Assembly: GCA_009392915.1 (NCBI GenBank)
Contig: CP045477.1
Coordinates: forward strand, 160,001-224,000
DNA: 64,000 nucleotides
Source of the DNA: Candidatus Forterrea multitransposorum CG_2015-17_Forterrea_25_41
Lineage (GTDB): Archaea; Iainarchaeota; Iainarchaeia; Iainarchaeales; CSSED10-239
Reading direction: 5' to 3'
The notes beneath the pieces were generated by a model that was not told the origin of the DNA, did not search any database, and saw only the letters and a list, made by a program, of their open reading frames with translations. Below, piece after piece: positions 7,516-36,005 of the stretch. The translations under genes were made by a program, and so were the position numbers. Numbering within the stretch: the stretch's first letter is position 1; each line of letters opens with the position of its first letter.

Positions 7516-9327
7516 ATGGGTAAAACTTATTTAGAAACAATTAAATATTTAATTGTTGCAGATTTTCAAGTAGATGGTTTAGTTGAAAAACCAGATGTTA
7601 TTGGTGCTATTTTTGGACAATCTGAAGGTCTTTTAGGTTCACAACTTGATATTAAAGAACTTCAACAGAATGGAAAAATAGGAAGAATAGAAATTACAAC
7701 TAGTCATAATAACAATAAAACTTTTGGAACTTTAAAACTTCCATGTTCTCTTTCAATGGTTGAAACTGTAATCATAGGTGCATCTATTGAATCTATTGAT
7801 AAAGTTGGTCCATGTGACACTAGATTTACTATTAAGAAAGTAGAAGATACAAGAGGACTTAAAAGAAAACAAATTAAAGATAGAGCAATTGATCTTTTAG
7901 GAAAATTAATGCAAGAAGAAATTCCTGACACAAAAGAGCTTATGGAAGAAATTGTTGATACTTTTAAAACAAAAGAAATTGTTTTTTATGGTCCAGATAA
8001 ACTTCCAGCAGGCCCAACAATTGATGCAAATAAAGAAATTATTATTGTTGAAGGAAGAGCAGATGTAATAACTATGTTAAAATATGGATTTACAAATGTT
8101 ATTTCAACTGGTGGTGCTAGAGTTCCAGCTTCTCTTGCAAATATTTGTAAAGATAAAATGGTAACTTTATTTTTAGATGGAGATAGAGGTGCTGATATTC
8201 AACAAAATCAACTTGTAAGAGCAATTAAAGTTGATTATATTGCAAGAGCTCCAGATGGAAAAGAAGTTGAAGAATTAACACAAAAAGAAATTAATCAAGC
8301 ACTTAGAAGAAGAATTAAATCAACTTTTGTTTTAGATTTAAAAGATAAAAGTAAAGATGATAGAAATTCTAAAAGTTTTTCAACTCAACCAAATATTGTT
8401 AAAAATACTAAATTTTCAACAACAAATGATCATAAAGTAATTTCTTCAAGACCAAGCTTTGATTCAAGACCTAAGTTTGATGGAAATAGAAGAGATGATA
8501 GAAGAGATGATAGAAGAGATGATAGGTTTAAAGAAAAACCTGTAAATGATTTTTCAAGTATGCTTTCAAATATTCCTGATGTTGAAAGAATTGATGTTTC
8601 TAATGAAAGATCTAACTTTAGAGATAATAATAGAAATAAACATAATTCATTTCAAAAAGAAAGACCAAACTATGATAGAAACTCTAAATTTGATTCTTCT
8701 AAAAAGACTTTTGATTCTAAAAAGACTTTTGATTCAAGAAAACCTTTTGACTCAAAAAATAATTTAGAGGCTGATAAAGCATTAAATAAACCTTCTCAAA
8801 CTAAAATAACTTTAAAAGATAGACTTGAGAGTGCTTTAAAAGAATTTGATAGTAAATCACAAGGAGATAAGTCTTTAAAAGAAAGTGTTTCTGAATCTAT
8901 TGATAAAAAAATAAATACTTCTCTAAAAACTGAAGCTTCTTATCCTGTAAAAGCAGCTGAAGCTTTAAATAAACCAAAAGAAGAAGTTAAAGTAGAGGTT
9001 AAAAAGAAAAAACCTCTTGCAAAGATTACAGAAAAAAGTAAAAAGAATTTTTTAAAGATTCTAGAAGAAGTTGATGGTAAAGGACAATCTAGAATTTTAA
9101 ATGAAAAATTAAGAAGGATAGGAAGTTCAAAGAGTAGTGAACTTTTATCTAAAATAAAATCTTTTAAAACTGGTAAGATTTTTGCAGTTGTAACTGATCT
9201 TGAAGTTGATGTTGAGATTTTAAAACTTTTAAAAGAAAAAGATGCTTCTTTTATTGTTTCTCCAAAATCTAAAATTAAAGAAGATCAAGAGATAAACATT
9301 GTAACTTACAATGAATTAAAGAAATAG
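7516..9327 (+). CDS. dnaG: Archaeal DNA primase DnaG (Toprim domain) with a long low-complexity repeat-rich C-terminal half
   Basis: The N-terminal MGKTYLETIKYLIVADFQVDGLVEKPDVIGAIFGQSEGLLG and the Toprim block IIVEGRADVITMLKYGF...LFLDGDRGADI are characteristic. Internal repeats RRDDRRDDRRDDR and KKTFDSKKTFDSRKPFDSK. Confidence 0.8.
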   Translation: MGKTYLETIKYLIVADFQVDGLVEKPDVIGAIFGQSEGLLGSQLDIKELQQNGKIGRIEITTSHNNNKTFGTLKLPCSLSMVETVIIGASIESIDKVGPCDTRFTIKKVEDTRGLKRKQIKDRAIDLLGKLMQEEIPDTKELMEEIVDTFKTKEIVFYGPDKLPAGPTIDANKEIIIVEGRADVITMLKYGFTNVISTGGARVPASLANICKDKMVTLFLDGDRGADIQQNQLVRAIKVDYIARAPDGKEVEELTQKEINQALRRRIKSTFVLDLKDKSKDDRNSKSFSTQPNIVKNTKFSTTNDHKVISSRPSFDSRPKFDGNRRDDRRDDRRDDRFKEKPVNDFSSMLSNIPDVERIDVSNERSNFRDNNRNKHNSFQKERPNYDRNSKFDSSKKTFDSKKTFDSRKPFDSKNNLEADKALNKPSQTKITLKDRLESALKEFDSKSQGDKSLKESVSESIDKKINTSLKTEASYPVKAAEALNKPKEEVKVEVKKKKPLAKITEKSKKNFLKILEEVDGKGQSRILNEKLRRIGSSKSSELLSKIKSFKTGKIFAVVTDLEVDVEILKLLKEKDASFIVSPKSKIKEDQEINIVTYNELKK

Positions 9328-9360
9328 TTTTTTTTAAAAAAATAAAAAAAAAGAAAGAAA

Positions 9361-9789
9361 TTATTTCTTTTTCTTTCTTACTACTTTTTTCTTTTTAGTA
9401 GTTGGTTTTACAATTGCTTTAACTTTTGTTTCTTTTACTTTTTTTGTTTCTGTTTTATTTCTTTTACTTGAGATATATAAAAAGTCTCCAAGTATTATTA
9501 AAAGAACAGCAAGTAAAACATTAATTATTTGTCTTATATAGATTTTAAGGTATTGTCCTGTTGTAAACTCTACTTGGTTTGTTCTAATTGCAATTCCAAG
9601 TCCTTCAGATACATTTTCTTTACAGATATCTAATACTTCTGGTTGATATTTTGAAACTTCAATACAGTTACTATATTGGTCCATAAAGTCTATATCGTTA
9701 AAAATATTAGTAATTGATAAAAGTAAGAAAAATATACCAAAAACAAATATAAAAGCTCCAATTACTTTTAAAATATTATTTTTTTCCAT
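9361..9789 (-). CDS. Hypothetical membrane protein with two TM segments and a Lys-rich tail
   Basis: Hydrophobic segments VIGAFIFVFGIFFLLL and INVLLAVLLIILGDFL, then a C-terminal KKKKVVRKKKK tail. Confidence 0.4.
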   Translation of the reverse strand: MEKNNILKVIGAFIFVFGIFFLLLSITNIFNDIDFMDQYSNCIEVSKYQPEVLDICKENVSEGLGIAIRTNQVEFTTGQYLKIYIRQIINVLLAVLLIILGDFLYISSKRNKTETKKVKETKVKAIVKPTTKKKKVVRKKKK

Positions 9790-9968
9790 TTTTAAATCAC
9801 CTTTTTATTATAAACTATAATAATACATAAGATTATAGTTTATTTAAATCTTTTGTTTTTGTATAGATCTTTTGTGTATAATAAAAAGAAATACCTTTTT
9901 ATATCTTTTCTATATTAAATATATTACTTAAAATCTTTTTTTAAAAAGCAAAAGATTAAATCAAAAAA

Positions 9969-10041
9969 GGTTCTGTGGTCTAGTGGTTATGATATCGCCC
10001 TTACAAGGCGAGGATCGGCGGTTCGAATCCGCCCAGAACCA
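9969..10041 (+). tRNA. tRNA-Val (anticodon TAC)
   Basis: Hand-folded. Acceptor GGTTCTG/CAGAACC, anticodon arm TCGCC-CTTACAA-GGCGA, T-arm GGCGG-TTCGAAT-CCGCC, discriminator A. Confidence 0.85.
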
Positions 10042-10115
10042 CTTTTTAAAATCTCTTTTTATTAAAAATATAATATTAATTTATTTTATAAATATTATGG
10101 TATACTATTTTTCTT

Positions 10116-11897
10116 ATGAAATTTAAAATTATTTTACTTATATTTTTATTATTAATTACTCCTTTAGGATATCTTGAAGAAACAGATAGTCAATCTTTAG
10201 ATTTTGATGTAATAAAAACAAAATTTATGGATGTTAATGTTTCAATTGAAATTCCAATATATCTTGATCAATATTCTCAAGAATCTTCTTTTGTCTTAAC
10301 TACTCCTGTTTTTGTAACAACTAATTCTCAATCAGTAGACTTAGAGGCTTATTATTTAGAAAATGGACAAAAAGTTTATGCAGATTACAGTGAAGATGAA
10401 TATGGTAATAAATTTGCAATTTTTGATATTAAAAAAATAACTAAAGCTCAATATTCTTTTTTTGTAGATGCAAGAATAGTTTCTGAAAATAAAATTATTT
10501 TTGCAGAAGATGTTTTTTCTCTTGAAAATGAAATTACTGATTTTAAGGAATATAAAGCTTCAACAAGATATATTAATTCAGATAGTAGTGAAATTATTTC
10601 AATGGCAAATTATTTAAAAAAATCAGATAATGCTTTAAAAGAACTTACAAATATTATTGATTGGACTTATAATTTTGTCGAATATGATTTAAGTTATTCA
10701 GATAAAACTGTTGAAGCAGTAAATGTTTTATCAGAAAGAAAAGGAGTTTGTTCAGAGTTTGCAATTCTTGCAGCTGCTATCTTAAGAGAAAGAGGTTTTC
10801 CTACAAGATATGTGACAGGTTATGCAAATAGTACTCTTGATTGGCAAGCCCATGCATGGCTTGAAGTATACATCCCTGGACAAGGTTGGGTTCTTGCAGA
10901 TCCTACTTTTGGAGAAGTTGGTCTTGTTGATGCAAGTCATCTTTTAATTTCAAGATCTTTTGATCCTTCAGAAATTAAAGATAGAATAACTTCTTTTGGA
11001 AATGTATCTTTAAGATTTGGAGAAAAAAAAGCAAGCTTTAAGATTAATGATCATAAAAGTTTTTCAGATCTTGGATATTCAAATGCAATTTCTGTAAATT
11101 TTGATTTTCCTGAAAAAATAAAAGAAAATTCTGCTTTTTTTATAAAAGCAAATATTACAAATACAACCTCAAGAGCAATGTCTGTTTTTTTTATGTTAAA
11201 TACACATCAGGATTTTGAATTAATCTATCCTGAAAATACAGATAAAATAATATATCTTGAACCATTTAAAGAAGAAGTTTTAACTTTTTATTTAAAATCA
11301 AATGTTGATGTTCCAAATAATTATTATAAAACTTATAGTTTTAATCTTAAGTCACAAGTAACAGACTATAGTGGTTCTTTAAATATTTATAATGATGAAG
11401 GTTATTTTCAAGAAGCTTTTTTTGTAACAGCGCCTTTATTGTATGTTGATAAAGATGTTTTAAAATATAGTTTAGAAATTATTAATTTTACTGATGAAAA
11501 AAAAGTTTTAAATTTTGATTTTAATAACAATAATGTTTTAAGTTCTGAAATTATAGAGGTTCCAATTAATTCTACGTATGTTTTTGAAAAAGAATTTGGT
11601 GTTTTAAAAGATACTTCTTTTAGTTATTTAATTTCACAAGATTATGATCTTTCAAATAATTTTTTTATTTTTGATGATTCTATTGAAGAAAAAGAAGTTG
11701 TTGTAATTGATGGTAATGTTCAAGATCAAGTTAAGCCTTCTGAAAAAGATAATAATTTAGTTGTTTGGGAAGATGAAAAATTTCCTAAAGAAGAAACTTC
11801 TTCAAATAACTTAATTGGTATAATTATTGTGATTGTTTTTATTATTTTTACAATAGTTATTTTTGTTTCAAATAAGAAAAATAAAGAAGGTTTATAG
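10116..11897 (+). CDS. Membrane-anchored extracellular transglutaminase-like cysteine protease superfamily protein
   Basis: N-terminal signal MKFKIILLIFLLLITPLG. Cys-His-Asp core: KGVCSEFAILAAAILRERGFPTRYVTGY, then QAHAWLEVYIPGQGWVLADPT. C-terminal TM helix IIIVIVFIIFTIVIFV. Confidence 0.7.
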   Translation: MKFKIILLIFLLLITPLGYLEETDSQSLDFDVIKTKFMDVNVSIEIPIYLDQYSQESSFVLTTPVFVTTNSQSVDLEAYYLENGQKVYADYSEDEYGNKFAIFDIKKITKAQYSFFVDARIVSENKIIFAEDVFSLENEITDFKEYKASTRYINSDSSEIISMANYLKKSDNALKELTNIIDWTYNFVEYDLSYSDKTVEAVNVLSERKGVCSEFAILAAAILRERGFPTRYVTGYANSTLDWQAHAWLEVYIPGQGWVLADPTFGEVGLVDASHLLISRSFDPSEIKDRITSFGNVSLRFGEKKASFKINDHKSFSDLGYSNAISVNFDFPEKIKENSAFFIKANITNTTSRAMSVFFMLNTHQDFELIYPENTDKIIYLEPFKEEVLTFYLKSNVDVPNNYYKTYSFNLKSQVTDYSGSLNIYNDEGYFQEAFFVTAPLLYVDKDVLKYSLEIINFTDEKKVLNFDFNNNNVLSSEIIEVPINSTYVFEKEFGVLKDTSFSYLISQDYDLSNNFFIFDDSIEEKEVVVIDGNVQDQVKPSEKDNNLVVWEDEKFPKEETSSNNLIGIIIVIVFIIFTIVIFVSNKKNKEGL

Positions 11898-11965
11898 ATT
11901 ATTATATTTATAAAAATAGATATCAAATCTATTTATAAATATTTATCTTCTTAATTATAGTATAG

Positions 11966-12037
11966 GCACTCGTAGTATAGTGGTTAGTATGGGAGCTTGC
12001 CAAGCTTTCGGCCCGGGTTCGACCCCCGGCGAGTGCA
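11966..12037 (+). tRNA. tRNA-Gly (anticodon GCC)
   Basis: Acceptor GCACTCG/CGAGTGC, anticodon arm GGAGC-TTGCCAA-GCTTT, T-arm CCGGG-TTCGACC-CCCGG, discriminator A. Confidence 0.85.
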
Positions 12038-12038
12038 T

Positions 12039-12070
12039 CAACTGGTTATGCTCAGTTGACACGCAAAAAT
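12039..12070 (+). ncRNA. Conserved hairpin (CAACTG-gttatgct-CAGTTG) followed by ACACGCAAAAAT immediately 3' of tRNA-Gly. Member 1 of a three-copy motif family.
   Basis: A perfect 6-bp inverted repeat with an 8-nt loop, then the ACGCGCAA-like tail. The same architecture recurs at 44314-44342 and 44351-44379 with compensatory stem changes. Confidence 0.4.
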
Positions 12071-12132
12071 ATCCAAGCTTGCAGGCGTTGTTGTCATGCA
12101 AAACTTGCTAAGCTTTAAGGCGTTTTTTATAT

Positions 12133-12438
12133 ATGGTTAAAGATAAAAAAAAAGTTATTGAAAAAATAAATTTTTTAATCGATTTTGCAATTTCTCAAAA
12201 ACAAGAAAGTAATCCTTATATTTATGATTATATTAATATTTCTTTTAATTTAGCAAAAAAAATAAACTACAGGATGCCAAAAGAGATACATAGAAAAGTT
12301 TGCAAAAATTGTTTTTCTATAAGATCTTTAGAAAACACAAAGATTAGAACTTTAAGAGATAAGAAAAATGGTGTTATTGTAAAATCTATAAAGCTTCACT
12401 GTCTTTCCTGCAACCATATTAAAAAAATAAGAGTTTAA
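12133..12438 (+). CDS. rnp4: RNase P protein component Rpp21/Rpr2 (Rnp4), a zinc-ribbon protein
   Basis: Basic N-terminal helices (VKDKKKVIEKINFLIDFAI...AKKINYRMPKEIHRKVCKNC) and a C-terminal C-x2-C...C-x2-C ribbon (CKNC...CLSC). About 100 aa. Confidence 0.65.
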   Translation: MVKDKKKVIEKINFLIDFAISQKQESNPYIYDYINISFNLAKKINYRMPKEIHRKVCKNCFSIRSLENTKIRTLRDKKNGVIVKSIKLHCLSCNHIKKIRV

Positions 12439-12491: not shown

Positions 12492-12591
12492 AAAATCCTT
12501 ATATTTATAAATATTATGCCTAACATATAAGTATAATATATTTTAATAAATGATAGCTGATGTTTATAGATAGAATAAAAATTCAAAGAAA
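12492..12591 (+). promoter_or_regulatory. 100-nt promoter/leader block, copy A, identical to 15412-15511. It contains a TATA-like element (tttataaata) upstream of pilin-like gene A.
   Basis: Exact 100/100 identity with 15412-15511. The AT-rich TATA-like box lies about 30-40 nt upstream of the ORF. Confidence 0.6.
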
Positions 12592-14044
12592 GGTACAACC
12601 TTTTTTTGAAAAAAATGTTAACGAAAAAAGAAAAGCTATTAGTCCACTTATAGCAACCATTCTTTTAGTGGTTGTTGCCATAGCTATAATCGGTATTGTT
12701 CTTTCCTGGGGTAAAGGTTTTACAAACACAACTCTTTCTTCTGCAGATAATATTAATACCAAAAATTCTTTCACAGGTCTTGTTTGGTCTTTTGAAACTT
12801 TTGGAAATAATGTCTTGGTTGAAAATAAATCAAAACAAGATTTAAACATTACTGGTTATACTATTAACTCTCTTGATCATAATGGTTTTTGGATAAACTC
12901 ATATCATCCTTTAGAAACTACTTTATCAATTTCTCCTGGAACTTCAAACAATGTTCCTTTGATCTGTATGCCTGAGGGAAAATTTATTTTAACTCTAAAG
13001 ACATCCTCAAATGAAAATATACCTCTTAACATCTCTCCTTCGAAAACACTTTTAGGAGGAACTTGTGAAGAATATAATGTTTCTCTTTGGGAATTTGCAG
13101 CAGAAACTGGAAGTTATGAGATTAATGAGATTGCTTTAGAGCAGGGTAATAATTATAGTAATTATAATTTTTTATTTAGTTGGACTGAAGTAAGTGCTAC
13201 TATAAATGATTCTAATACATTTAGTTCAACAAGTGTTGGTGGAATCACTAAGCAAACTACATGGATGGAGGTAGGTAAGAGATATAAATTAAAAATTTCA
13301 GGGACAACAACCGCTTCAGGAATAGTTATATTTTCTGGAAACAACGGAACATATATAGGTTCTTTAACTACTGGCAATTTTAGTCAAACATTTAAAAAAA
13401 CAATACTTGCTGTAAATCCTGGTTTAGACTTATATATAAGGAATTCATCAGCAGGAGTTACAACAATTACTGAATTGTCAGTAATAGAAATTCCTCCCCT
13501 TCCTGATTTTAACACAGGCACAAAATATTTACAAAATACTACTTCAGGAACAACTGCTATTGAAAGTAAACAAGCTTATGGTGAATGGGAGTTTGATGTT
13601 TATAAAGGTAGTACATTAACCAATTCATTTGTAAAAATAATCTCAGATGCCATAATAGGCAGCGTAGGTGGAAATTCTTATACTATTCAATTTAATGTAG
13701 ATGAAGCATTAAAGTTATGGAGAGGTGGCACTGCCATTATGAGTACAGCAAATTCCTACATCTCCAAAAACACTTGGTACAGAATAAAAGTAGCAAGACT
13801 TCAAAGTTCTGGAACATTTGCAATTATAGTTCCTTCGATGACCACAACCTATCCAAAAGACACATTTGCAGTTTTCATAAAAGGTGGGGAGTTTGGAGAT
13901 GATTGGACTTTAGTAGATACAACAGGTGGAAGTGGAACAAACCCTGTCACAGACTCTACATACACTACAAGCAATTATTTTGTTGCAGACCTTGATGTTG
14001 GAGATAGAATAGCAAATATTAAAATGAAGGAGAGTGTTGACTAA
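12560..14044 (+). CDS. Type IV pilin-like (class III signal peptide, DUF361-like N-terminus) surface protein A with a large beta-rich extracellular domain. Mosaic paralog of 15480..17333.
   Basis: KRKA|ISPLIATILLVVVAIAIIGIVLSWGKGF matches the archaeal prepilin site [KR][GA]|, followed by a hydrophobic helix. It shares the N-terminal ~180 aa and C-terminal ~75 aa with paralog C. The annotated ATG may be upstream of the true start. Confidence 0.65.
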   Translation: MFIDRIKIQRKVQPFFEKNVNEKRKAISPLIATILLVVVAIAIIGIVLSWGKGFTNTTLSSADNINTKNSFTGLVWSFETFGNNVLVENKSKQDLNITGYTINSLDHNGFWINSYHPLETTLSISPGTSNNVPLICMPEGKFILTLKTSSNENIPLNISPSKTLLGGTCEEYNVSLWEFAAETGSYEINEIALEQGNNYSNYNFLFSWTEVSATINDSNTFSSTSVGGITKQTTWMEVGKRYKLKISGTTTASGIVIFSGNNGTYIGSLTTGNFSQTFKKTILAVNPGLDLYIRNSSAGVTTITELSVIEIPPLPDFNTGTKYLQNTTSGTTAIESKQAYGEWEFDVYKGSTLTNSFVKIISDAIIGSVGGNSYTIQFNVDEALKLWRGGTAIMSTANSYISKNTWYRIKVARLQSSGTFAIIVPSMTTTYPKDTFAVFIKGGEFGDDWTLVDTTGGSGTNPVTDSTYTTSNYFVADLDVGDRIANIKMKESVD

Positions 14045-14045
14045 A

Positions 14046-15383
14046 ATGTTTTCAAAAGTAAATAAAAAAGCTATTAGTCCACTTATAGCAACCATCCTTT
14101 TAGTGGTTGTTGCCGTAGCTATCATCGGTATTGTTCTTTCTTGGGGAAAAGGCTTTACAAACACAACTCTTTCAAAAGCTTCAAGTATTGAAGTTTATTC
14201 AGAATCAGAAATTGGTTTTTATTTAAATCTTCAAAACTCAATAAACGGAAGAACCACAGTTTCTTATAACCCTCCACAAAATACTACTTATAATAATCTA
14301 ACAATAGTTGGTTATGGCCTTTTAGGATATACAACAAACATAGTTCCTTTAGAACCTCCAATAACTATTTCAAAATCACAAACTGCAAATATTGATCATG
14401 GTATAATTTTACCTGAATTTGATTTAGTTTTATATTTAGATAACAATACTATGATAACTAAATTTAATTTAAAACAAGAAATTAAACAACCTTCTTCTTG
14501 TCCTGAAGGTTTTATTCCAGTTCCTGGAAATCATTTATATGGAACCATGAATGAAAGAGGTGGTTTTTGTGTAATGAAATATCATGCAAAAAATGACACT
14601 GGCTCAAAAATAAATTCAACTTGTATAACAGGTCTAGAAGGTTCTGATAGTAATCTAACAGTTAAATCAGTTCCAGAAATTGCTCCTTCAGTAAATATAA
14701 ATTATTGTGCTGCAAAAAAATCTTGTGAAAATTCAGGATATATTTTAATGAATAATTCTCATTGGATGACTATTGCAAGAAATATTGAACTAAATGAATT
14801 AAATTATGTTTCTGGAAATCTAGGTGAAGGCTTTATTTTTAGAGGGCATTATAATAATAATCCATCTTTAATTATTGAAGCAAATTCAGATGATTCAAAT
14901 AATTTTTATTTAATAAACAGTCCAAACTCAGATCAAAGAAGAACTTTATATTTATCTAATGGAGAAATAATTTGGGATTTTACTGGAAATGCATGGAATA
15001 TATTAGAAGATTTAGTTTTAATAAAGGATCATGCAGATGGTTTTTATACTTCTGATGATACTGAGTTTAATTCTGGTAATGATAATTTATTTCTAACGGA
15101 TTATTATAAAGGTAGTAATAATTATTATTTAAAATTTAATCAATTAGGTAATACTATTTTTAATTATAAAGATATTTATTTATTAAATTCAAAATACAAT
15201 GCTGTAAATAATGGTATTGGTATTTACCATGGAAATAGTAATAGAGGAAGTGTTTCTGAAACTATTACTTTTATGATGAGAGGTGGAGATAAACAAAATG
15301 GTCAATATTCTGGTTTAATGGAATTAACATTCCCTAATTTAAGTTCTAATGGAAATACAGTTGGATTTAGATGTGTGAAATAA
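14046..15383 (+). CDS. Type IV pilin-like signal peptide fused to an FGE-sulfatase (SUMF1/C-type-lectin-like fold) family domain
   Basis: MFSKVNKKA|ISPLIATILLVVVAVAIIGIVLSWGKGFTNTTL has the same mature N-terminus as the neighbours. Ordered FGE-sulfatase hallmarks: HWMTIARN, GEIIWDFTGNAWNILED (like GN.WEW), MMRGGDKQNG (like RGGSW) and terminal GFRCVK. The track start at 14034 is GTG. The ATG at 14046 is more likely. Confidence 0.55.
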   Translation: MFSKVNKKAISPLIATILLVVVAVAIIGIVLSWGKGFTNTTLSKASSIEVYSESEIGFYLNLQNSINGRTTVSYNPPQNTTYNNLTIVGYGLLGYTTNIVPLEPPITISKSQTANIDHGIILPEFDLVLYLDNNTMITKFNLKQEIKQPSSCPEGFIPVPGNHLYGTMNERGGFCVMKYHAKNDTGSKINSTCITGLEGSDSNLTVKSVPEIAPSVNINYCAAKKSCENSGYILMNNSHWMTIARNIELNELNYVSGNLGEGFIFRGHYNNNPSLIIEANSDDSNNFYLINSPNSDQRRTLYLSNGEIIWDFTGNAWNILEDLVLIKDHADGFYTSDDTEFNSGNDNLFLTDYYKGSNNYYLKFNQLGNTIFNYKDIYLLNSKYNAVNNGIGIYHGNSNRGSVSETITFMMRGGDKQNGQYSGLMELTFPNLSSNGNTVGFRCVK

Positions 15384-15411
15384 ATATATCTCTTTTTTTA
15401 AAAAATTATTA

Positions 15412-15511
15412 AAAATCCTTATATTTATAAATATTATGCCTAACATATAAGTATAATATATTTTAATAAATGATAGCTGATGTTTATAGATAGAATAAAA
15501 ATTCAAAGAAA
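15412..15511 (+). promoter_or_regulatory. 100-nt promoter/leader block, copy B, identical to 12492-12591
   Basis: Exact duplicate of copy A, sitting upstream of pilin-like gene C. Confidence 0.6.
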
Positions 15512-17333
15512 AGAAAAAACTTTTTTTGAAAAAAATGTTGACAAAAAAAGAAAAGCTATTAGTCCACTTATAGCAACCATCCTTCTTGTAGTTGTTGCTG
15601 TTGCCATCATCGGTATTGTTCTTTCTTGGGGAAAAGGTTTTACAAACACAACTCTTTCTTCTGCAGATAATGTTAATACCAAAAATTCTTTCACAGGTCT
15701 TATTTGGTCTTTTGAAACTTTTGGAAATAATGTTTTAGTTGAGAATAAATCAAAACAAGATTTAAATATTACTGGTTATACTATTAATTCTCTTGATCAT
15801 AATGGTTTTTGGATAAACTCTTATCATCCTTTAGAAACCACTCTTTCAATATCTCCTGGAACTTCAGATAATGTGTCTTTGATTTGTATGCCAGAGGGTA
15901 AATTTATTTTAACTTTAAAAACCTCAACAAATGAAAACATACCTCTTAACATCTCTCCTTCAAAAACAAGTAGAGGTTCTACTTGTGAGGAGTATAATGT
16001 TTCTCTTTGGGAGTTTGTAGCAGAAACTGGAAGTTATTCTATTAATACTTTTACAATGCAGGAAGGAGAACTTGTAACTAACGGTGGGTTTGAGACTGAT
16101 TTATCTGGTTGGTTAAGAACAAGTCATATTATTCAAAATAATGATGTTGCAGATGTTAATCTTATTGGCTCTGATTATATTTTAGAACAACAAAATGTTG
16201 TAGAAATGGGTAAAAGTTACTTAGTTACTTTTGAAATTAAAAACTATTATTCAGGTGCAGTTTATTTTTATAATGTTAATTTGCCAGGGGTAGGTAGTGG
16301 TTATACTGCAACTTCAAATGGGGTTTATGCACTAACATTTACATCTAGTGGAAATAACATCTTATTTCGAACTGTAACTAATTTTGTAGGATCTATTGAT
16401 AATATCTCAATAGTAGAAATCCCTCCTCTTGAAACAATAACCACAGGCACAAAATACTTAGAGAACACAACAGCAGGAACAACTGCTATTGAAAATAAAC
16501 AAGCTTATGGTACTTGGGAATTTGATGTTTATAAAGAAAATGCAAATTATCATTATACATATTTTATAAATTCTACCACAAATACAATGGATAATAGTTA
16601 TAGAATTACTTTAAAAAATTTTAATGCTTTAGATTTAAGAAAACAAGGTGATTCAACTTTAACATTATTATTAACTTCTGATAATTATATTCAAGATAAT
16701 ACTTGGTATAGAATAAAAGTTGCAAGACTTCAAAGCGAAGGTGTGTTTAACGACATACCTACTTTGCAGACTAGTGATATGGTGAATAGTGCAACACAAC
16801 CTTACCAATCATTTACAAGTAAGGGGAGATATGGATTCAGTGCTATTGCAAATGGAACTACAATTACTCATGCTAATACAGCAGATGAAATAGACCTTGT
16901 AAATACAGGAAAATACCTTGTAGAATTTGATTTAAAATTAAACAGCGGGATAGCCCCAGATGTAGCATTAGCAGCAAGTGTAACAAGTGGGTTGTATTCT
17001 AATTCAGTTCAATCTATTGTAGGGAGAAATAGTTTTATACTTACTGCAAGTAATTCAATTACAGGGATATTAAGGTTTTATAACAGTTCTACTGAGTCTG
17101 CAGACTACGAAGTTTCAAACTTAACAATCAGAAGAATCTACCCAAAAGACACATTTGCAGTATTTATTAAAGGTGGAGAGTTTGGAGATGATTGGACTTT
17201 AGTAGATACAACAGGTGGAAGTGGAACAAACCCTGTCACAGACTCTACATATACAACAAGCAATTACTTTGTAGCTGACCTTGATGCTGGAGATAGAATA
17301 GCTAATGTTAAAATAAAACCAAATATTGAATAA
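15480..17333 (+). CDS. Type IV pilin-like surface protein C with a CBM4_9-like carbohydrate-binding module. Mosaic paralog of A.
   Basis: Same signal and helix (KRKA|ISPLIATILLVVVAVAIIG). NGGFETDLSGWLRTSHI is the CBM_4_9 signature. Shared blocks with A include IEIPPLxxxTGTKYLxNTTxGTTAIExKQAYGxWEFDVYK, NTWYRIKVARLQS.G and the C-terminal YPKDTFAVFIKGGEFGDDWTLVDTTGGSGTNPVTDSTYTTSNYFVADLD.GDRIAN. Confidence 0.65.
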   Translation: MFIDRIKIQRKEKTFFEKNVDKKRKAISPLIATILLVVVAVAIIGIVLSWGKGFTNTTLSSADNVNTKNSFTGLIWSFETFGNNVLVENKSKQDLNITGYTINSLDHNGFWINSYHPLETTLSISPGTSDNVSLICMPEGKFILTLKTSTNENIPLNISPSKTSRGSTCEEYNVSLWEFVAETGSYSINTFTMQEGELVTNGGFETDLSGWLRTSHIIQNNDVADVNLIGSDYILEQQNVVEMGKSYLVTFEIKNYYSGAVYFYNVNLPGVGSGYTATSNGVYALTFTSSGNNILFRTVTNFVGSIDNISIVEIPPLETITTGTKYLENTTAGTTAIENKQAYGTWEFDVYKENANYHYTYFINSTTNTMDNSYRITLKNFNALDLRKQGDSTLTLLLTSDNYIQDNTWYRIKVARLQSEGVFNDIPTLQTSDMVNSATQPYQSFTSKGRYGFSAIANGTTITHANTADEIDLVNTGKYLVEFDLKLNSGIAPDVALAASVTSGLYSNSVQSIVGRNSFILTASNSITGILRFYNSSTESADYEVSNLTIRRIYPKDTFAVFIKGGEFGDDWTLVDTTGGSGTNPVTDSTYTTSNYFVADLDAGDRIANVKIKPNIE

Positions 17334-17543
17334 AAACCAAATATTTAGTAACTTTTAATTTTTTTAAACTATTTTTAACCATAAAGAAACATATTTAAAT
17401 AGAACTCTACCTATATTATATATTATTAGACTTTTTTATATTAGTTGTTTAAACAATAACTTTTTAAAAAAAAAGAATCTATAAAGATGAGAATATATTC
17501 TTATATAAAAGATATATTTGATATAAACATGAGGTGAGAACTC

Positions 17544-23619: not shown

Positions 23620-24483
23620 TTGTGTATTTTAATGATTGAAATAATTTTATTTATTAAACTTTTTATAATATTAATTGCCACAAGTATAGGTGCTTGGACA
23701 GACTATAAAACAGGGTATATCTATAACTGGATAACTTTTCCTTTAATTATCTTAGGTTTATTATTATTAATTTTAGAATCTTTTGTTTTATTTAATCTTG
23801 GTTGGTTTTATTTTTTAAAAGTGTTTATAATTGGTTTATTAATATATGGTATTGGTTATTTATTTTATTATTTTGGAAAATTAGGAGGAGGAGATGTAAA
23901 ATTATTTTTAGGAATTCATCTTTTAGTTCCTTATGTAAATGGTCAACTTTTAATTTTATGGGTTTTAATTTTATCTTCTCTATTATCTGTCTTAATTGTT
24001 TCAATTAAATATTTATTTATTCTTTTTAGAAAAATTACATTTACTGAATTTAAAAAAATTATAAAAACAAGAACCTCTAAAATGATTATTTATTTATTAA
24101 TGTTTATTTTTTTTGTTTTTCTCTTATATTCTGCAATCTATAATGTTGGTTTTTCAAAATATTATTACTTATTATTAATTCCTATATTTATAGGTCTTTT
24201 AACAGTTTTATTTGAAGAAGAAATTAAGAAATATATTTATCTTAAAAGAAAAGTTTTAAGGAAAATAGAAGAAGGAGATGTTTTAGCAATTGAGTTTTTA
24301 TCAAAAGAACTTCTTAATAAACTAAATATGGGAAATAGACAAGTTATTGAAGAAAAAGATTTATTGATTATTAAAAATTTAGATGTTAAATCTTTACCTA
24401 TATATGATAATCTTCCAAGATTTGGACCTTATATACTTTTAGGTTTTATTTTTTCTTTTTTATATTTATTTTTCTTATTTTAA
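23620..24483 (+). CDS. A24-family prepilin/preflagellin peptidase (PibD/FlaK-like), a polytopic membrane protein
   Basis: The first catalytic Asp is in IGAWTDYKTGYI and the second in YFGKLGGGDVKLFLG (GxGD-like). Multiple TM helices. It is the likely processor of the KRKA| and KG|A signal peptides in this window. Confidence 0.55.
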   Translation: MCILMIEIILFIKLFIILIATSIGAWTDYKTGYIYNWITFPLIILGLLLLILESFVLFNLGWFYFLKVFIIGLLIYGIGYLFYYFGKLGGGDVKLFLGIHLLVPYVNGQLLILWVLILSSLLSVLIVSIKYLFILFRKITFTEFKKIIKTRTSKMIIYLLMFIFFVFLLYSAIYNVGFSKYYYLLLIPIFIGLLTVLFEEEIKKYIYLKRKVLRKIEEGDVLAIEFLSKELLNKLNMGNRQVIEEKDLLIIKNLDVKSLPIYDNLPRFGPYILLGFIFSFLYLFFLF

Positions 24484-27994: not shown

Positions 27995-28140
27995 TTTATT
28001 TAAAAAAGAAAATAAATATTTCTCTCCACTAATAAATATACTTAATCCTTTATTTAAGGGAGGGGAAAAAAAGGTCTTTCCATAAAAGAAAGTACCTTTC
28101 TAATAGATGCATATTTCTAAATAATATATATCCTTTAACA

Positions 28141-28190
28141 AATATATCTCTTTTCAAGCAGGGGGTAGCTGGCCGAGTAAATTAATTTAG
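28141..28190. repeat. GC-rich 50-nt direct repeat, copy R1 (aatatatctcttttcaagcagggggtagctggccgagtaaattaatttag), upstream of the radC-like gene when read on the minus strand
   Basis: 50/50 identical to R2 at 28856-28905. The first 30 nt are identical in R3 at 29943-29972. The GC-rich core is anomalous in this AT-rich genome. Confidence 0.8.
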
Positions 28191-28513
28191 TATTTAAATC
28201 TCTTTTCATAACTTTTATGATTAAACCATTCTATAATAATAGATATAATTTTAATTTGATCACTTTTAATTGTGTATACTAATCTCCATCCATTAAATAG
28301 ATTATATTTCCAAAGGTTTGTAATTTTATATTTTTTAATATATTCTTTTGGCCATAATTTTTTTGAAATTTTAATTCCAGAAGTAGGATCTTTTTTAAGA
28401 GTTTCAATTGCTTTTAGAATATTTTTATACAAATCATGATTTTCTTTAAGGTTTTCAAAATTAATTTCTAATTCTCTTGAAACAAATACAACATAATTTT
28501 CTTTATCAATCAT
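28187..28513 (-). CDS. relE: RelE/ParE-superfamily toxin (type II toxin-antitoxin system)
   Basis: 108 aa. ...LWPKEYIKKYKITNLWKYNLFNGWRLVYTIKSDQIKIISIIIEWFNHKSYEKRF follows the RelE/YafQ pattern (W.Y.L...WRLVY.I......I....H). Overlaps the upstream antitoxin ORF by 4 nt. Confidence 0.65.
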   Translation of the reverse strand: MIDKENYVVFVSRELEINFENLKENHDLYKNILKAIETLKKDPTSGIKISKKLWPKEYIKKYKITNLWKYNLFNGWRLVYTIKSDQIKIISIIIEWFNHKSYEKRFKY

Positions 28514-28779
28514 CTTAATTTAACACCTAAAGATAATATTTTTGAAATATTTTTTTTATCATATATCCAAATTACAATATTATCTTTATCAATAATAATC
28601 TTACTAGATTCTTCTAGATATTCAAGAATTATTTTGTATGTCTGATACATCATTTTTTTAGGTATTTTTTTCCATAATTGATAGATAGTATACTGAGAAC
28701 TATATTTTTTAATAGTATTTTCAACCATTAAGATACTCTCAAGCTTTGGACTATGATATTTTATTTTTTCTTTAGGCAT
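28510..28779 (-). CDS. Putative antitoxin partner of the RelE-family toxin. Start taken at MPKEKIKYHS.
   Basis: An 89-aa ORF immediately upstream of, and overlapping, the toxin gene. The ORF-track start at 28872 would run through repeat R2 and is probably too long. Confidence 0.4.
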   Translation of the reverse strand: MPKEKIKYHSPKLESILMVENTIKKYSSQYTIYQLWKKIPKKMMYQTYKIILEYLEESSKIIIDKDNIVIWIYDKKNISKILSLGVKLR

Positions 28780-28855
28780 ATTATATAACTTTATATAAGT
28801 TAAATTTTTAAATATTTTTATTTGCCTAAAGTATATATTAATATGTGTTTTAAAA

Positions 28856-28905
28856 AATATATCTCTTTTCAAGCAGGGGGTAGCTGGCCGAGTAAATTAA
28901 TTTAG
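28856..28905. repeat. GC-rich 50-nt direct repeat, copy R2, upstream of the antitoxin-toxin operon
   Basis: Identical to R1. Confidence 0.8.
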
Positions 28906-29904
28906 AACTTTTTTTAATTCTTTTTCATTTGGTAAAAATGTACTTAATTTTTTAGGAATTTTAGATAATTTGTATTCTGCTATTCCTAATGGATATTTAT
29001 TATTTAATAAAGAATATTCTACTATTGTCTTATTCTTAGATTTACATATTAATAATCCAATAGTTTCTTTATCTTCTTTTCTTTTCATATCTTTATTTAT
29101 TACATTAATATAAAACCCTATTTGGCCAAGATATTCTGGTTTGAATTCAGTAATTTTTAATTCAATTACTATAAATCTTTTTAAAATATAATTATAAAAT
29201 AATAAATCTATATAAAAATCTTTATTTCCAACATTAATTTTAAATTGTTTTCCAATAAATGCAAATCCTTTTCCTAATTCTATTAAAAATTTAGATATAT
29301 TTGAAACAATAGATTCTTCTAATTCTTTTTCATTAAATTCTTCTTTTAAATGTAAAAAATCTAATATATAATTTTCTTTAAAATAATTTAAAATAAATTT
29401 TGAATCTTTTTTTGGAAGTGTGTTTAAAAAATTAATGTTTATGTTTTTTTTTCTTGCATATAAATTTAATTCTATTTGATGTTCTAATAATACTTTAGAC
29501 CATAAATTATTAATTGATTCTTGAATATAGAAAAGTGCTTCTTCTTTATTTTTAATTTTATCTAGAATTAATCTTATTTGATTCCAAGGTAATTGTGCCA
29601 CAACTTGTGGCACATTTTCTGTTTTAAAAAATAAATAGAATTTTCTCATATAAAATAAATTTCTTCTCGAAAAACCTTTTACATTAGGGAATTCTTTTCT
29701 TAAATCTTTTTCTATTTGCCCAATTAAATTTATTCCCCAATTACTTTCTTTTTGTTTAAAATAAATTTCTTTTCCAAGAGTGTAATAAAGATTAATTAAT
29801 TCTGAATTTACTTTTAATATTGCATTTTGTCTTGATTTAATAATGTTTTCTTTAATTTTAGAAATAAATTCTATATATTCTTTATTAAATATATTTTTTT
29901 CCAT
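28897..29904 (-). CDS. YhcG-like DUF1016 protein with a C-terminal PD-(D/E)XK nuclease domain
   Basis: The N-terminal region resembles DUF1016 (KENIIKSRQNAILKVNSELINLYYTLGKEI). The C-terminal DLLFYNYILKRFIVIELKITEFKPEYLGQIGFYIN carries the D...E.K restriction-endonuclease-like motif. Confidence 0.65.
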   Translation of the reverse strand: MEKNIFNKEYIEFISKIKENIIKSRQNAILKVNSELINLYYTLGKEIYFKQKESNWGINLIGQIEKDLRKEFPNVKGFSRRNLFYMRKFYLFFKTENVPQVVAQLPWNQIRLILDKIKNKEEALFYIQESINNLWSKVLLEHQIELNLYARKKNININFLNTLPKKDSKFILNYFKENYILDFLHLKEEFNEKELEESIVSNISKFLIELGKGFAFIGKQFKINVGNKDFYIDLLFYNYILKRFIVIELKITEFKPEYLGQIGFYINVINKDMKRKEDKETIGLLICKSKNKTIVEYSLLNNKYPLGIAEYKLSKIPKKLSTFLPNEKELKKVLN

Positions 29905-29942
29905 ATCTTATCTATTCTAGATATATTTTATATTTTTACAAA

Positions 29943-29982
29943 AATATATCTCTTTTCAAGCAGGGGGTAGCTAGCTGAGTAA
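29943..29982. repeat. GC-rich direct repeat, copy R3 (the first 30 nt identical, then agctgag in place of ggccgag), upstream of the yhcG-like gene
   Basis: aatatatctcttttcaagcagggggtagct is identical, followed by a variant tail agctgagtaaa. Confidence 0.75.
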
Positions 29983-30083
29983 AAAAGATTAAATTTTAAT
30001 TTCTATAGCCAATAACCTACATTAACATTATAAACTCTTTCTCTCTTAAATATATTATTAAATATAAAAAATAAGATTATATT

Positions 30084-35100: not shown

Positions 35101-35463
35101 TAGACTTGTTTCTTGTCTATTAATTATAAGTGATCCTATTTGGCTTTGTGTTTTTAGATTTTCAATACTTCTTTTATTTTTAATTTCTTGTCTTAAATAA
35201 AGATTACTTGAGTTATTATCAACTGTAATTGGGTCACTTAAATCTAAATAAACTTCTTTATAGCTTCCAACTTCTGAATCTTTTAAATCTGTTAAAATAT
35301 CATTAATATATGCTAAGTTATCTCTGTTGTTTTTCATTCTTTGTGAATCTTCTAGAGTTCCAAAATAATTCATTGCAAAATAAATAAATATACCTAAAAA
35401 TATAATACTTACAAAAAGAATTGCTATTCCTGAAAATAAAGATGTTACTCCTTTTTGATTCAT
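32155..35463 (-). CDS. Giant pilin-signal adhesin (1102 aa) with a class III signal peptide, LamG/ConA-like domain, PKD-like domains, a fibrinogen-related domain and a Gly-rich C-terminal beta-rich domain
   Basis: Signal MNQKG|VTSLFSGIAILFVSIIFLGIFIYFA. LamG_3 region IGYWKIDEGEGSTVYDYSGNSNNGSIVG...TINGWIYY. PKD-like repeats ending GEHTITLSVTDQEQT / GEHKITLIVNDQYQT. Fibrinogen motif GVYWILKDGVPTQIYCNMEDNGGGWMLY. C-terminal VDVLVVGGGGGAG...GGGGAGG...GSGIVIVRYKY. Confidence 0.7.
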   Translation of the reverse strand: MNQKGVTSLFSGIAILFVSIIFLGIFIYFAMNYFGTLEDSQRMKNNRDNLAYINDILTDLKDSEVGSYKEVYLDLSDPITVDNNSSNLYLRQEIKNKRSIENLKTQSQIGSLIINRQETSLLYNIDYNNNILFYNYIDIMPGLEELRFSVVDKNNNIPIIEIQRIGDEILIEEVVNQSIVLSNNNINQDLVLTSYFIASDAVDTEYLNKNIFFEEPITIEKKETKEIDVVCAPEENYILKLNTDKGREIVKPIKTNNYNVLDCIDYQIIGYWKIDEGEGSTVYDYSGNSNNGSIVGTANWNSSSKLNLDGANDYINVSNVGDYSSFTINGWIYYTENQSLEHESFFWSQKNNLRVSINPVDKKMEIRWRDLDGGYSTYELSDPVEENKWINYTVTYDETLKTLKGYINGNLEKTLEEIYSYETQGGGVKFGINSTNTRYFKGMISDYRLYGRSLNLNEIKAIYDNTKNEYVEELTININSPTNLQTFSFGEAIDFNSQIENENGSYSCSWVSSIDGSLSSNCDFSTSSLTVGEHTITLSVTDQEQTIDKNISITIIDLDGSSSEKAAPSAMYIKNNNPSATNGVYWILKDGVPTQIYCNMEDNGGGWMLYSSFSTDNTYDSSYPAWNGNRILTTDLSTYGYNLDYYTHYNDGVNVNFASYTRRPEFLSFFYSGPADNGLLTMNTWNGPSDINQLRVYYGLGSTAASYSSNSGNLIINNSTVVTGTSGDFTSVSISSFDPDGTIPLLRVEEIGIVGISWIFMRSIPNPISVTIDTPSNSSTHNYGENLTFNSTITNPSGSHSCYWDSNIDGTLSSTCNFSTTNLSSGEHKITLIVNDQYQTAGASINLTINQGYLEATGGTVTTSGDYKYHTFTSSGTFNVTTLGEGKVDVLVVGGGGGAGKAGTNTLRNPGGGGAGGLVYVEDYTLSSTGNITVTVGAGGTGSTNQDFTGNNGNNSVFKNLIAYGGGGGGSRDNPSRDGTSGGSGGGANLYSAVPANGGSATQPSTNDGYPNTGFGYPGATSVVNVGAGGGGGAGGPGTVPNGGPGMTIWGNTYAKGGDAHSDASSAAANTGNGGNGSATNSSANGGNGGSGIVIVRYKYQN

Positions 35464-35993: not shown

Positions 35994-36005
35994 ATTTTAA
36001 AACCT

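Follow-up and report, generated by a model that had tools for sequence, protein, structure and literature searches.

The middle gene of a three-gene cassette from a tiny DPANN-type archaeon, referred to here as gene B, probably encodes an adhesin of fixed specificity: a pilin-type surface protein whose non-catalytic, lectin-fold head belongs to the family of variable proteins of diversity-generating retroelements (DGRs). It was analysed within a stretch of 64,000 nucleotides, which we call the window, and sits between two further pilin genes with ConA-like lectin heads (genes A and C). For the most part, DPANN archaea and CPR bacteria live as obligate episymbionts, and little is known of the ways in which they recognise their hosts and attach to them. 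With its three adjacent pilin-like genes carrying lectin-type heads, this locus is a concrete candidate for host attachment, and the head of the middle gene is of a kind that the same population hypermutates elsewhere by DGR.

The initial annotation described gene B as a prepilin signal peptide fused to an FGE-sulfatase/C-type-lectin-like domain, and as a whole this description is correct, with an intact gene, an archaeal class III (prepilin-type) N-terminus and all four of the quoted motifs in the order of the FGE fold. Its wider interpretation stands in part, as the fusion and the absence of the FGE cysteine pair are borne out, while the expected PF03781 match is not found and the DGR family of the protein had been missed.

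Organisation of the locus

The features of the locus are the following.

12492–12559, + strand: AT-rich block with TATA-like boxes upstream of gene A (repeat family D1, 94 % over 300 nt), repeated before gene C
12560–14044, + strand: gene A, encoding a pilin-like protein whose head is a ConA-like lectin/CBM; its stop lies 1 nt before the start of gene B
14046–15383, + strand: gene B, 445-aa modular archaeal type IV pilin-like protein (from the ORF list, stop codon included; identical public protein P0001)
15412–15479, + strand: the same block a second time, upstream of gene C, with a T7 run before it
15480–17333, + strand: gene C, longer in its middle part than its paralogue gene A and with the same pilin N-terminus (60 % identity over 70 % of gene C by BLASTP)
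about 23632–24483 (also 23620–24483), + strand: prepilin (type IV leader) peptidase, Peptidase_A24 (PF01478, 41.2 bits, cut-off 26.5)

The reading frame of gene B is intact over 445 aa, from an ATG at 14046 to a TAA at 15381–15383. Upstream of this ATG, which is the start used in public gene calls, a GTG (14034) and a TTG (14037) lie in the same frame; the public protein P0001 is 100 % identical. Only one base separates the stop codon of gene A (TAA, 14042–14044) from the start of gene B, no copy of the 68-nt upstream block common to genes A and C lies before gene B, and the T7 run (15393–15399) is found just 3′ of the gene B stop. Coupled expression of genes A and B, as first suggested from the abutting stop and start, is therefore probable, and gene B is probably co-transcribed with gene A. 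The blocks upstream of genes A and C may be promoters, and the T7 run a terminator.

The Peptidase_A24 gene, for which the public gene call is 283 aa, lies ~8 kb downstream of gene B. Among the larger ORFs scanned in the window there is neither a pilus assembly ATPase (PilB/FlaI-like) nor a membrane platform protein (PilC/FlaJ-like), and no short major pilin was seen in the 64 kb. An 840-aa P-loop ORF with a weak Zot match is a HerA-like helicase with an intein.

The N-terminal pilin module

The gene B protein can be divided into the following parts.

14046–14072, + strand: class III (prepilin) leader MFSKVNKKA, residues 1–9 (TIGR02537 match; predicted cut A9/I10)
14073–14177, + strand: hydrophobic N-terminal α-helix, residues ~10–44 (AlphaFold helix 12–44; profile matches; DNA identity with genes A and C)
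14217–14474, + strand: β-sandwich globular part of the pilin module, residues ~58–143
14493–15380, + strand: FGE-type C-type-lectin-fold module, non-catalytic, residues ~150–445
15273–15380, + strand: stretch equivalent to the DGR variable region (VR) of paralogues, residues 410–445, fixed and AT-rich (alignment with the C-terminal segment of TaqVP and the VR of the paralogue P0013)

The N-terminus, MFSKVNKKA/ISPLIATILLVVVAVAIIGIVLSWGKGFTNTTLS with the slash at the predicted cut, is common to genes A, B and C, in agreement with the initial annotation. The DNA that encodes this N-terminus, with the helix, forms a 119-nt repeat (family D2) at 12620, 14055 and 15540, 89–92 % identical between the three genes. 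Archaeal type IV pilin-like proteins are marked by a charged leader ending in K/R–G/A and, after it, a hydrophobic helix of ~20–30 residues. The gene B protein conforms to this type, and its residues 10–41 match TIGR02537 with 23.6 bits, above the cut-off of 20. Pfam Pilin_N (PF07790) reaches 16.6 bits, short of its cut-off of 25.2, and N_methyl (PF07963/IPR012902) gives no match to the protein, the N-terminus being of the archaeal type. Prepilin peptidase is predicted to cut between A9 and I10, a site that we liken to a pattern of K/R-A before the cut and V/I-S-P after it, presumably typical of archaeal Pilin_N-type pilins.

The AlphaFold model of the protein is confident (pLDDT 85.6) and consists of a pilin module (residues 10–145) followed directly by the lectin-fold module (150–445). 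Within the former, the helix leads into a β-sandwich that resembles solved archaeal pilus subunits, and the family profile matches two such subunits, 8fk7 (E 6.7e-6) and 8rey (5.7e-4). A search of the PDB with the single gene B sequence returned a weak pilin match and chance antibody matches, and nothing else.

Proposed display on a pilus

In the mechanism that we propose, the class III signal peptide would be cut, presumably by the downstream Peptidase_A24, and the pilin module, with its hydrophobic helix and β-sandwich, would anchor the protein in the membrane and enable its entry into a type IV pilus-like filament, most likely as a tip or minor subunit. The C-terminal head, which is without the FGE catalytic cysteines, would bind the ligand. 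The lectin-headed pilins encoded by the cassette of genes A, B and C would serve in attachment, with the surface of a host cell as a plausible target. The product of gene B is most likely a pilus-displayed adhesin of fixed specificity. Where the initial annotation spoke of a pilus-displayed domain, the pilin-type nature of the protein stands, and we infer the display itself and the ligand.

Surface proteins outside pili can carry class III signal peptides too, among them archaeal substrate-binding proteins such as the sugar-binding proteins of Sulfolobus (the bindosome). The signal peptide and helix of gene B could likewise serve only for export and membrane anchoring, with the protein binding a ligand or nutrient as a surface monomer or in a non-pilus assembly and never entering a filament. 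Such a role would fit the lack of assembly genes and of a short major pilin in the window, and a length of 445 aa is very large for a polymerising subunit. We nevertheless consider it unlikely, as the protein has a full pilin-like β-sandwich beyond the signal peptide, the three adjacent genes keep their helix DNA nearly identical, as expected for proteins that share one filament core or machinery, and modular pilins of comparable size do enter pili in bacteria (PMC8179133).

The fold of the C-terminal head

The C-terminal module would form the outer end of this surface protein. The four motifs lie at residues 239–246 (HWMTIARN), 314–322 (GNAWNILED), 410–419 (MMRGGDKQNG) and 440–445 (GFRCVK), and in a profile alignment they line up in order with RLPTEEEWEFAARG, LLGNVWEWT, LRGASW and LGFRCA of SUMF2. 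The family consensus (hlitnnewmTiaRN, GNvfew, lrGGsw and iGlRC) is likewise in register with SUMF2 and with the DGR variable protein TaqVP, and the gene B versions of these motifs (HWMTIARN, GNAWNI, RGGDK and GFRC) are degenerate.

The Pfam model PF03781 has no match at E ≤10 in gene B, either in the whole protein or in residues 148–445 alone, so that a direct assignment fails. The initial annotation had proposed this search and would have taken its failure as refutation, and although that is literally the outcome, the test asks too much: the fold is established by the homologues, by profile searches and by structure alike. Of 60 full-length homologues 47 match PF03781 (best 3e-11). DGR-type paralogues score 30–42 bits, and an orthologue 71 % identical to gene B has a sub-threshold 17.3 bits. 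The family profile matches TaqVP (1.8e-8) and SUMF2 (5.9e-4), and Foldseek searches with the gene B model rank formylglycine-generating enzymes first. The modelled three-dimensional structure has an FGE-type C-type-lectin fold, and this assignment is secure despite the missing Pfam match.

Of the 91 columns that are strongly conserved in the family, gene B deviates at 12. At three of these (T236N, E239H and W254Y) the 59 other sequences all agree, and gene B has also lost the Trp of RGGxW. These departures, together with the lack of a direct Pfam match, suggest that the binding site may work differently from that of its relatives.

DGR-diversified relatives

The head family is common to DPANN archaea and CPR bacteria, and many of its members are DGR variable proteins. 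Gene B, with its C-type-lectin fold and C-terminal variable-type segment, has the make-up of such a protein and is 47–50 % identical to proven DGR targets. One of its paralogues, P0013 (47 % identical), is encoded in a complete DGR cassette, a connection that had been overlooked even though the type of protein had been correctly recognised. At the P0013 locus (L002) the target gene is accompanied by bAvd, a template repeat (TR) and a reverse transcriptase (RT). Compared along 100 nt, the TR and VR have differences at 12 adenines of the TR and at one other position. P0013 has three full-length variants, representing three VR haplotypes, and wherever these differ the position is encoded by a TR adenine. 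We place P0013 in the same genome or population as gene B on the single ground that the longest listed contig is 839,632 nt for both; with this placement, a P0013-type paralogue is being diversified now in the population that carries gene B.

Clean TR/VR pairs were also found at four archaeal loci (L009, L011, L016 and L019), all four of whose targets have pilin N-termini. The bacterial DGR-positive homologues in the sampled loci are mostly large non-pilin surface proteins, and we limit the link between pilins and DGRs to the archaeal clade. No TR was found in locus L001, beside the RT of P0005; the sequence after the P0005 stop equals that after the TR in L002, so the contig joins the VR to the TR flank, through either an assembly collapse or a real deletion.

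Gene B as a fixed copy under purifying selection

The VR-equivalent stretch of gene B (15273–15380) has a GC content of 0.29 and an A content of 0.36, compared with 0.57–0.68 and 0.09–0.18 in DGR-type homologues, and the A-depleted, GC-rich signature of DGRs is thus absent from its 3′ end. No TR was detected in the 64-kb window by a search for generic repeats, by gapless scans of the last 200 nt on both strands or with a TR-derived pattern allowing 3 mismatches. Nor can the 3′ end be aligned with the TR of P0013, the only known TR of the population: a 3-nt indel and many non-A mismatches set the two apart. The window has no DGR-type RT motif in any frame, and there is no RT or Avd among the called neighbours of gene B, whereas P0013 has both.

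Comparison with the 71 % identical orthologue, which is found in another genome, gave a dN/dS of 0.31 overall, 0.26–0.34 in each part of the gene and 0.26 in the VR-equivalent stretch. The gene B protein is identical on 41 contigs, a count that is weak proof of invariance, since the exact sequence of P0013 also recurs in many contigs. Clusters at 90 % identity provide a cleaner contrast, with three VR haplotypes for P0013 and none for gene B; the one variant of gene B is altered in its final 8 residues alone, and in a way that is not DGR-like. Gene B is a separate, fixed-sequence lineage under purifying selection, a sister of the DGR-diversified proteins, and for this reason we read it as an adhesin of fixed specificity.

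The loss of family-invariant residues described above, and the fact that gene B no longer reaches the Pfam model, could also be taken to mean that it is the decaying, functionless relic of a former DGR target. That gene B is such a pseudogene is highly improbable, and we reject the idea on the basis of the dN/dS values and of conservation: the ORF is intact and recurs unchanged, an orthologue exists in another genome, each part of the gene is constrained and the protein has a confident structural model.

It could also be proposed that gene B is itself a DGR target, diversified by a TR outside the window. DGRs can act on remote targets, the identity of gene B to proven targets extends to a C-terminal segment that aligns with their VR, and another homologue, P0010, ends in a GC-rich stretch that resembles a VR although no RT lies within 10 kb of it. 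This proposal is largely refuted by the base composition of the 3′ end, which is neither GC-rich nor A-poor, by the lack of any match to the population's TR or of a TR-like sequence in the window, by the invariance of gene B next to the haplotypes of P0013, and by the constraint on the VR-equivalent stretch itself.

A binding module rather than an enzyme

The catalytic, copper-binding Cys pair of FGE is known to sit between the RGGS and GFRC motifs. The only cysteines of the gene B protein are at positions 152, 175, 193, 221, 227 and 443, and none lies between its RGG (412–414) and GFRC (440–443) motifs. These positions confirm the earlier suspicion that the catalytic pair is absent, and with no Cys where that pair would be, the head is best understood as a binding-only module, just as had been suggested. 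A true enzyme of the FGE/EgtB/PvdO type, acting as a secreted oxidase or a sulfatase-maturating enzyme, would agree with the Foldseek ranking and with the name ‘SUMF1/EgtB/PvdO family nonheme iron enzyme’ that NCBI gives to several homologues, but we reject it as having almost no likelihood, since gene B is without the Cys pair and in structure comes closest to a binding protein. For the annotation of these homologues, whose heads are non-catalytic binding modules, that automatic name is misleading; others are auto-named ‘flagellin-like’.

Comparison with known systems

FGE and its inactive paralogue SUMF2/pFGE (PDB 1y4j) share the fold of the gene B head, with the four motifs in the same order, and SUMF2 and gene B are alike in lacking the Cys pair at the FGE active-site position. 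The head of gene B differs from both in being fused to a pilin and having extra insertions (~295 residues as opposed to roughly 270–290), and its identity to them is only 12–15 %; unlike FGE, it is not an enzyme.

We take IPR005532 to be the InterPro entry for the PF03781 domain, and the architecture IPR012902–IPR005532 to represent a prepilin motif joined to an FGE-sulfatase domain. A survey of modular pilins lists 8 bacterial proteins with this architecture (PMC8179133, Dataset S1). The statement in the initial annotation that a pilus-displayed version had not been characterised is therefore true experimentally, yet the architecture had already been catalogued in bacteria (PMC8179133), in a survey restricted to the bacterial motif (IPR012902) and with no occurrence of ‘archaea’ in its text. 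Gene B, with an N-terminal pilin module and an extra functional module, is a modular pilin in the sense of Raynaud et al. 2021 (PMC8179133). Lectin-headed precedents are found among the modular pilins of Streptococcus sanguinis, where PilB has a vWA head and PilC a ConA-like head (PMC8179133), and in the lectin-like minor pilins PilX1 and PilX2 of Saccharibacteria (PMC11623550). All have the same design, in which a bulky C-terminal module for ligand binding is joined to a small pilin module at the N-terminus, and the ConA-like heads of genes A and C are like that of S. sanguinis PilC. Gene B differs from these bacterial proteins in having an archaeal class III signal peptide (TIGR02537/Pilin_N type) in place of the N-methylation motif and an archaeal-style β-sandwich as the globular part of its pilin module, and its binding and incorporation are predicted.

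The DGR variable proteins with an FGE-type C-type-lectin fold include TaqVP (PDB 5vf4), TvpA (2y3c), Mtd (1yu0) and those of DPANN archaea (PMC4372165, PMC5006420). In contrast to these, gene B is a fixed paralogue with no TR, nearby RT or Avd, A-depleted VR or population variability, and it adds a full archaeal pilin module at the N-terminus. A pilin module on DGR variable proteins is not mentioned in PMC4372165, PMC5006420, PMC5758913 or PMC8144416, from whose texts the word ‘pilin’ is absent. Archaeal DGR variable proteins borne on pilins are not described in the literature searched; Paul et al. 2017, outside it, may describe them.

The DGR-diversified tip adhesins of Bacteroides type V pili (bioRxiv 10.1101/2024.11.15.621889) resemble gene B in carrying a C-type-lectin-fold head on the end of a pilus subunit, and in both families diversified and static heads exist side by side. 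The type V pili of Bacteroidota are, however, an unrelated system, built from lipoprotein subunits by strand exchange, whereas gene B encodes a static version on an archaeal type IV pilin.

Fixed and diversified heads in one organism

The function of the DGR variable proteins of DPANN archaea has been called poorly understood (PMC5758913). The fusion of such a head to a pilin module indicates that these proteins can be placed on a pilus-type scaffold, and gene B and P0013 make a natural pair in which two receptor-binding heads of one organism, one fixed and the other diversified, can be compared. It is possible, though we put it forward tentatively, that DPANN type IV pili display FGE-type lectin heads in two regimes, one DGR-hypervariable (P0013-type) and one fixed (gene B-type). 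If so, ‘adaptive’ and ‘innate’ host-recognition adhesins would be present on the same filament system, and related heads on bacterial-type pilins in CPR would imply module exchange across domains. PF07963 is indeed present in bacterial proteins homologous to the head.

Gene B encodes a pilin-like protein

The window has a G+C content of about 25% and carries archaeal housekeeping genes (ribosomal proteins S19e and L31e, eIF6, prefoldin, SRP54/FtsY, tRNA-guanine transglycosylase and a RuBisCO large-subunit homologue), and the closest named relatives of gene B are found in 'Candidatus Iainarchaeum/ainarchaeum' genome bins, which makes the source a DPANN-type archaeon. Contigs as long as 839,632 nt hold public copies of the locus. 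We consider that gene B is best filed both as a modular pilin and as a non-diversified member of the lectin-fold family of diversity-generating retroelement (DGR) variable proteins. The relevant features of the window are:

12560–14044, gene A, with the same pilin N-terminus as gene B
14046–15383 (+), gene B, 445 aa, from ATG at 14046 to TAA at 15381–15383
15480–17333, gene C, with the same pilin N-terminus as gene B
23620–24483, type IV leader peptidase (A24), PF01478 at 41.2 bits

The gene A stop codon (TAA) occupies 14042–14044, with the ATG of gene B one base further on; GTG (14034) and TTG (14037) lie upstream in frame, and public gene calls take the ATG as the start, giving a product 100% identical to the public protein P0001. 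The N-terminus, MFSKVNKKA/ISPLIATILLVVVAVAIIGIVLSWGKGF, scores above the cut-off of the archaellin/type IV pilin N-terminal model TIGR02537 (23.6 bits, cut-off 20) and slightly under that of Pfam Pilin_N, and the DNA encoding it is 89–92% identical among genes A, B and C. The initial annotation was right in what it observed here, namely the ORF, the pilin N-terminus and four ordered FGE-sulfatase motifs, which lie at residues 239–246, 314–322, 410–419 and 440–445.

The head domain

The wider interpretation in that annotation, a pilin fused to an FGE-fold head lacking the catalytic cysteine pair, is largely right. The check it proposed, a match to PF03781 (which we take to be the domain of IPR005532), fails on gene B itself, which gave none at E≤10 with either the whole protein or residues 148–445 alone. 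This is attributable to divergence of this one copy, which deviates at 12 of 91 strongly conserved family columns, including T236N, E239H and W254Y at positions invariant across the other 59 sequences.

The assignment of the C-terminal part to an FGE-sulfatase-like fold is nevertheless secure, as it rests on homologues, profile and model together. From 168 homologues found, 60 full-length sequences were aligned with gene B, and 47 of them match PF03781 (best E 3e-11), with those at 47–50% identity to gene B scoring 30–42 bits (cut-off 23.3). A profile of the head domain matches the solved structures of TaqVP (5vf4, E 1.8e-8), which like TvpA and Mtd is a DGR variable protein, and of SUMF2 (1y4j, E 5.9e-4), and it places the family motifs in register with SUMF2 RLPTEEEWEFAARG, LLGNVWEWT, LRGASW and LGFRCA. 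The AlphaFold model built from the full-length alignment is confident (pLDDT 85.6, pTM 0.85), and its top Foldseek matches are formylglycine-generating enzymes (E 1.8e-4, probability 1.0). The model comprises:

residues 12–44, long helix
residues 60–143, beta-sandwich (pLDDT >90)
residues 150–445, lectin-fold domain

The suspicion that the head only binds was borne out by its cysteines (152, 175, 193, 221, 227 and 443), none of which falls between RGG (412–414) and GFRC (440–443), the stretch that holds the catalytic pair in FGE (human Cys336/Cys341). Pfam and NCBIfam scans gave pilin N-terminal models only, with no extra domain of the kind seen in EgtB/OvoA-type enzymes, and structurally the head matches a ligand-binding protein best; from these three points we conclude that this is a non-catalytic binding head. 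Four homologues (P0005, P0009, P0052 and P0068), all pilin-headed and without the cysteine pair, are named 'SUMF1/EgtB/PvdO family nonheme iron enzyme' by NCBI, which is probably a misleading automatic annotation of binding modules.

Relatives within diversity-generating retroelements

The homologue P0005, 48% identical to gene B, adjoins an RVT_1 gene, and the reverse transcriptase (RT) beside it contains the motifs IGNLTSQ..N.YL and YVDDF, which we take to be typical of DGR enzymes. A paralogue, P0013, is 47% identical to gene B; 839,632 nt is given as the longest contig both for it and for the window genes, which suggests that they share one genome. Its DGR cassette is complete on locus L002 (JGI Ga0210041_1001790):

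8547–12423, whole cassette: target, 128-aa ORF, bAvd, template repeat (TR) and RT
8547–9920, target gene P0013
~11027–11148, TR, 120 nt, between bAvd and RT
11407–12423, RT

Over 100 nt the TR and the target 3' end differ at 12 TR adenines and one other position. The 90% cluster of P0013 has three full-length members from different assemblies, identical over residues 1–425, and since these three variable region (VR) haplotypes differ only at positions encoded by TR adenines, this DGR is active in the population. It is also represented by loci L003 and L004, and in L002 and L003 the target is immediately preceded by a DDE transposase.

Clean TR/VR pairs were found in 17 of 57 related loci in a scan using one genome per species. 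An archaeal pilin N-terminus is present in all four archaeal positives (L009, L011, L016 and L019), and the bacterial DGR-positive relatives in the same sample are mostly large non-pilin surface proteins; head homologues with the bacterial N_methyl motif do occur in bacteria. At the P0005 locus (L001, JAQVRT010000019.1, 5560–5960) the target stop is followed by the sequence that in L002 comes after the TR, with no Avd gene or TR present. In this contig the VR has apparently been fused to the TR flank, either because the repeat collapsed during assembly or by a real recombination that removed Avd and TR. An exact second copy of the last 100 nt of the target lies some 6.3 kb downstream of it in L010 (JBBISB010000001.1, Candidatus Iainarchaeum), where there are also two DGR-type RT motifs, suggesting that either the DGR cassette or the target has been duplicated.

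Gene B is a fixed member of the family

That gene B is itself a DGR target is very unlikely in view of its composition, the lack of a TR or RT in the window, mismatch with the L002 TR, its constancy across contigs and its dN/dS. The last ~100 nt have a GC of 0.29 and an A content of 0.36, as in the remainder of the gene; in DGR-type archaeal relatives the same stretch has values of 0.57–0.68 and 0.09–0.18. No TR-like repeat was found in the 64-kb window by three methods (generic repeats, a gapless 3'-end scan and a TR-derived pattern), nor any DGR-type RT motif in any frame, and the 3' segment fails to align with the TR of L002, showing a 3-nt indel and many non-adenine mismatches. The same protein sequence occurs on 41 contigs; one variant differs in the last eight residues only, which points to an assembly or frame problem rather than to DGR variation. 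Against an orthologue in another genome (71% identical), dN/dS by the Nei–Gojobori method is 0.31 overall, with 0.27 for the pilin module, 0.34 for the head and 0.26 for the 40 VR-equivalent residues. A 3' end of ordinary composition is shared by 6 of the 14 archaeal full-length loci surveyed, and fixed lineages thus recur in the family.

In L005 (JGI Ga0451658_000012, 8564–11356) the 71%-identical orthologue of gene B lies right after secDF and directly upstream of the DGR-type paralogue P0010, the 3' end of which is VR-like (GC 0.55, A 0.17); as there is no RT within 10 kb, P0010 may be a remote DGR target.

Proposed function and relation to known systems

For leader cleavage, filament incorporation, ligand and host attachment we infer the following. 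The A24 peptidase would cut off the leader, and the hydrophobic helix and beta-sandwich would allow incorporation into a type IV pilus-like filament. The window ORFs scanned included no gene for an assembly ATPase or platform. Being so bulky, the protein would probably occupy the tip or act as a minor subunit, a placement already argued for modular pilins (PMC8179133). The exposed head would bind a defined ligand, through a surface conserved in gene B and continually rewritten by the DGR in the paralogue. A small DPANN cell would most obviously use it to attach to a partner cell or to a substrate; DGR targets of these lineages have been proposed to act in cell–cell attachment (PMC6349945), and in Saccharibacteria lectin-like minor pilins contribute to host binding (PMC11623550).

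DGRs with lectin-fold targets are known in DPANN (PMC4372165, PMC5006420), as are bacterial modular pilins with lectin heads, including a catalogue entry IPR012902 - IPR005532 with 8 proteins (PMC8179133), and the tip adhesins of Bacteroides type V pili are diversified by DGR (bioRxiv 10.1101/2024.11.15.621889). Reviews handle DGRs and pili separately, and the word 'pilin' is absent from four DGR papers (PMC4372165, PMC5006420, PMC5758913, PMC8144416). In the literature searched we found neither an archaeal type IV pilin with an FGE/lectin-fold head nor DPANN DGR targets described as pilins. What gene B hints at is a broader pattern, in which the DGR targets of DPANN are borne on pilins and have fixed sister copies.

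The A–B–C cassette and other features of the window

Genes A and C are near-identical at their 5' ends (300 nt, 94%; 12492–12791 and 15412–15711), where the match takes in a 68-nt upstream block that is AT-rich and contains TATA-like boxes, and at their 3' ends (201 nt, 89%; 13846–14046 and 17135–17335). They differ in the middle, C being longer by about 120 aa, a pattern suggestive of a recent duplication or gene conversion on either side of a central part that has been swapped. The 68-nt block is absent before gene B, which starts 1 nt past gene A and is followed after its stop by a T7 run, and A and B are likely to form a transcription unit. Laminin_G_3 occurs in homologues of genes A and C, and gene A is modelled with a ConA-like lectin/CBM fold; with the gene B head included, the three pilin-like proteins of the cassette thus all have lectin-type heads, in two distinct folds.

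Just upstream of the cassette, between tRNA-Val and tRNA-Gly, lies a gene for a 593-aa transglutaminase-like protein (10116–11897, +) with a signal sequence at its N-terminus and a membrane helix at its C-terminus. A second cluster (32155–38414, –) consists of three ORFs (1102, 176 and 802 aa) with different pilin-like N-termini (..QKG VTSLFSG.., ..KG AANLFSY.. and ..QRG ASEILSY..), heads of Laminin_G_3, Gly_rich_2, TafC-like and fibrinogen-like GGGWT type, and internal 927-nt repeats. A 70-nt repeat occurs three times (28126–28195, 28841–28910 and 29928–29997; 79–91% identical, core CTCTTTTCAAGCAGGGGGTAGCTGGCCGAGT), flanking a YhcG/PDDEXK nuclease gene, and no tRNA was called at these repeats (28126–29997). 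Finally, an 840-aa HerA-like P-loop helicase (52402–54924, –) is split by an intein with a LAGLIDADG domain.
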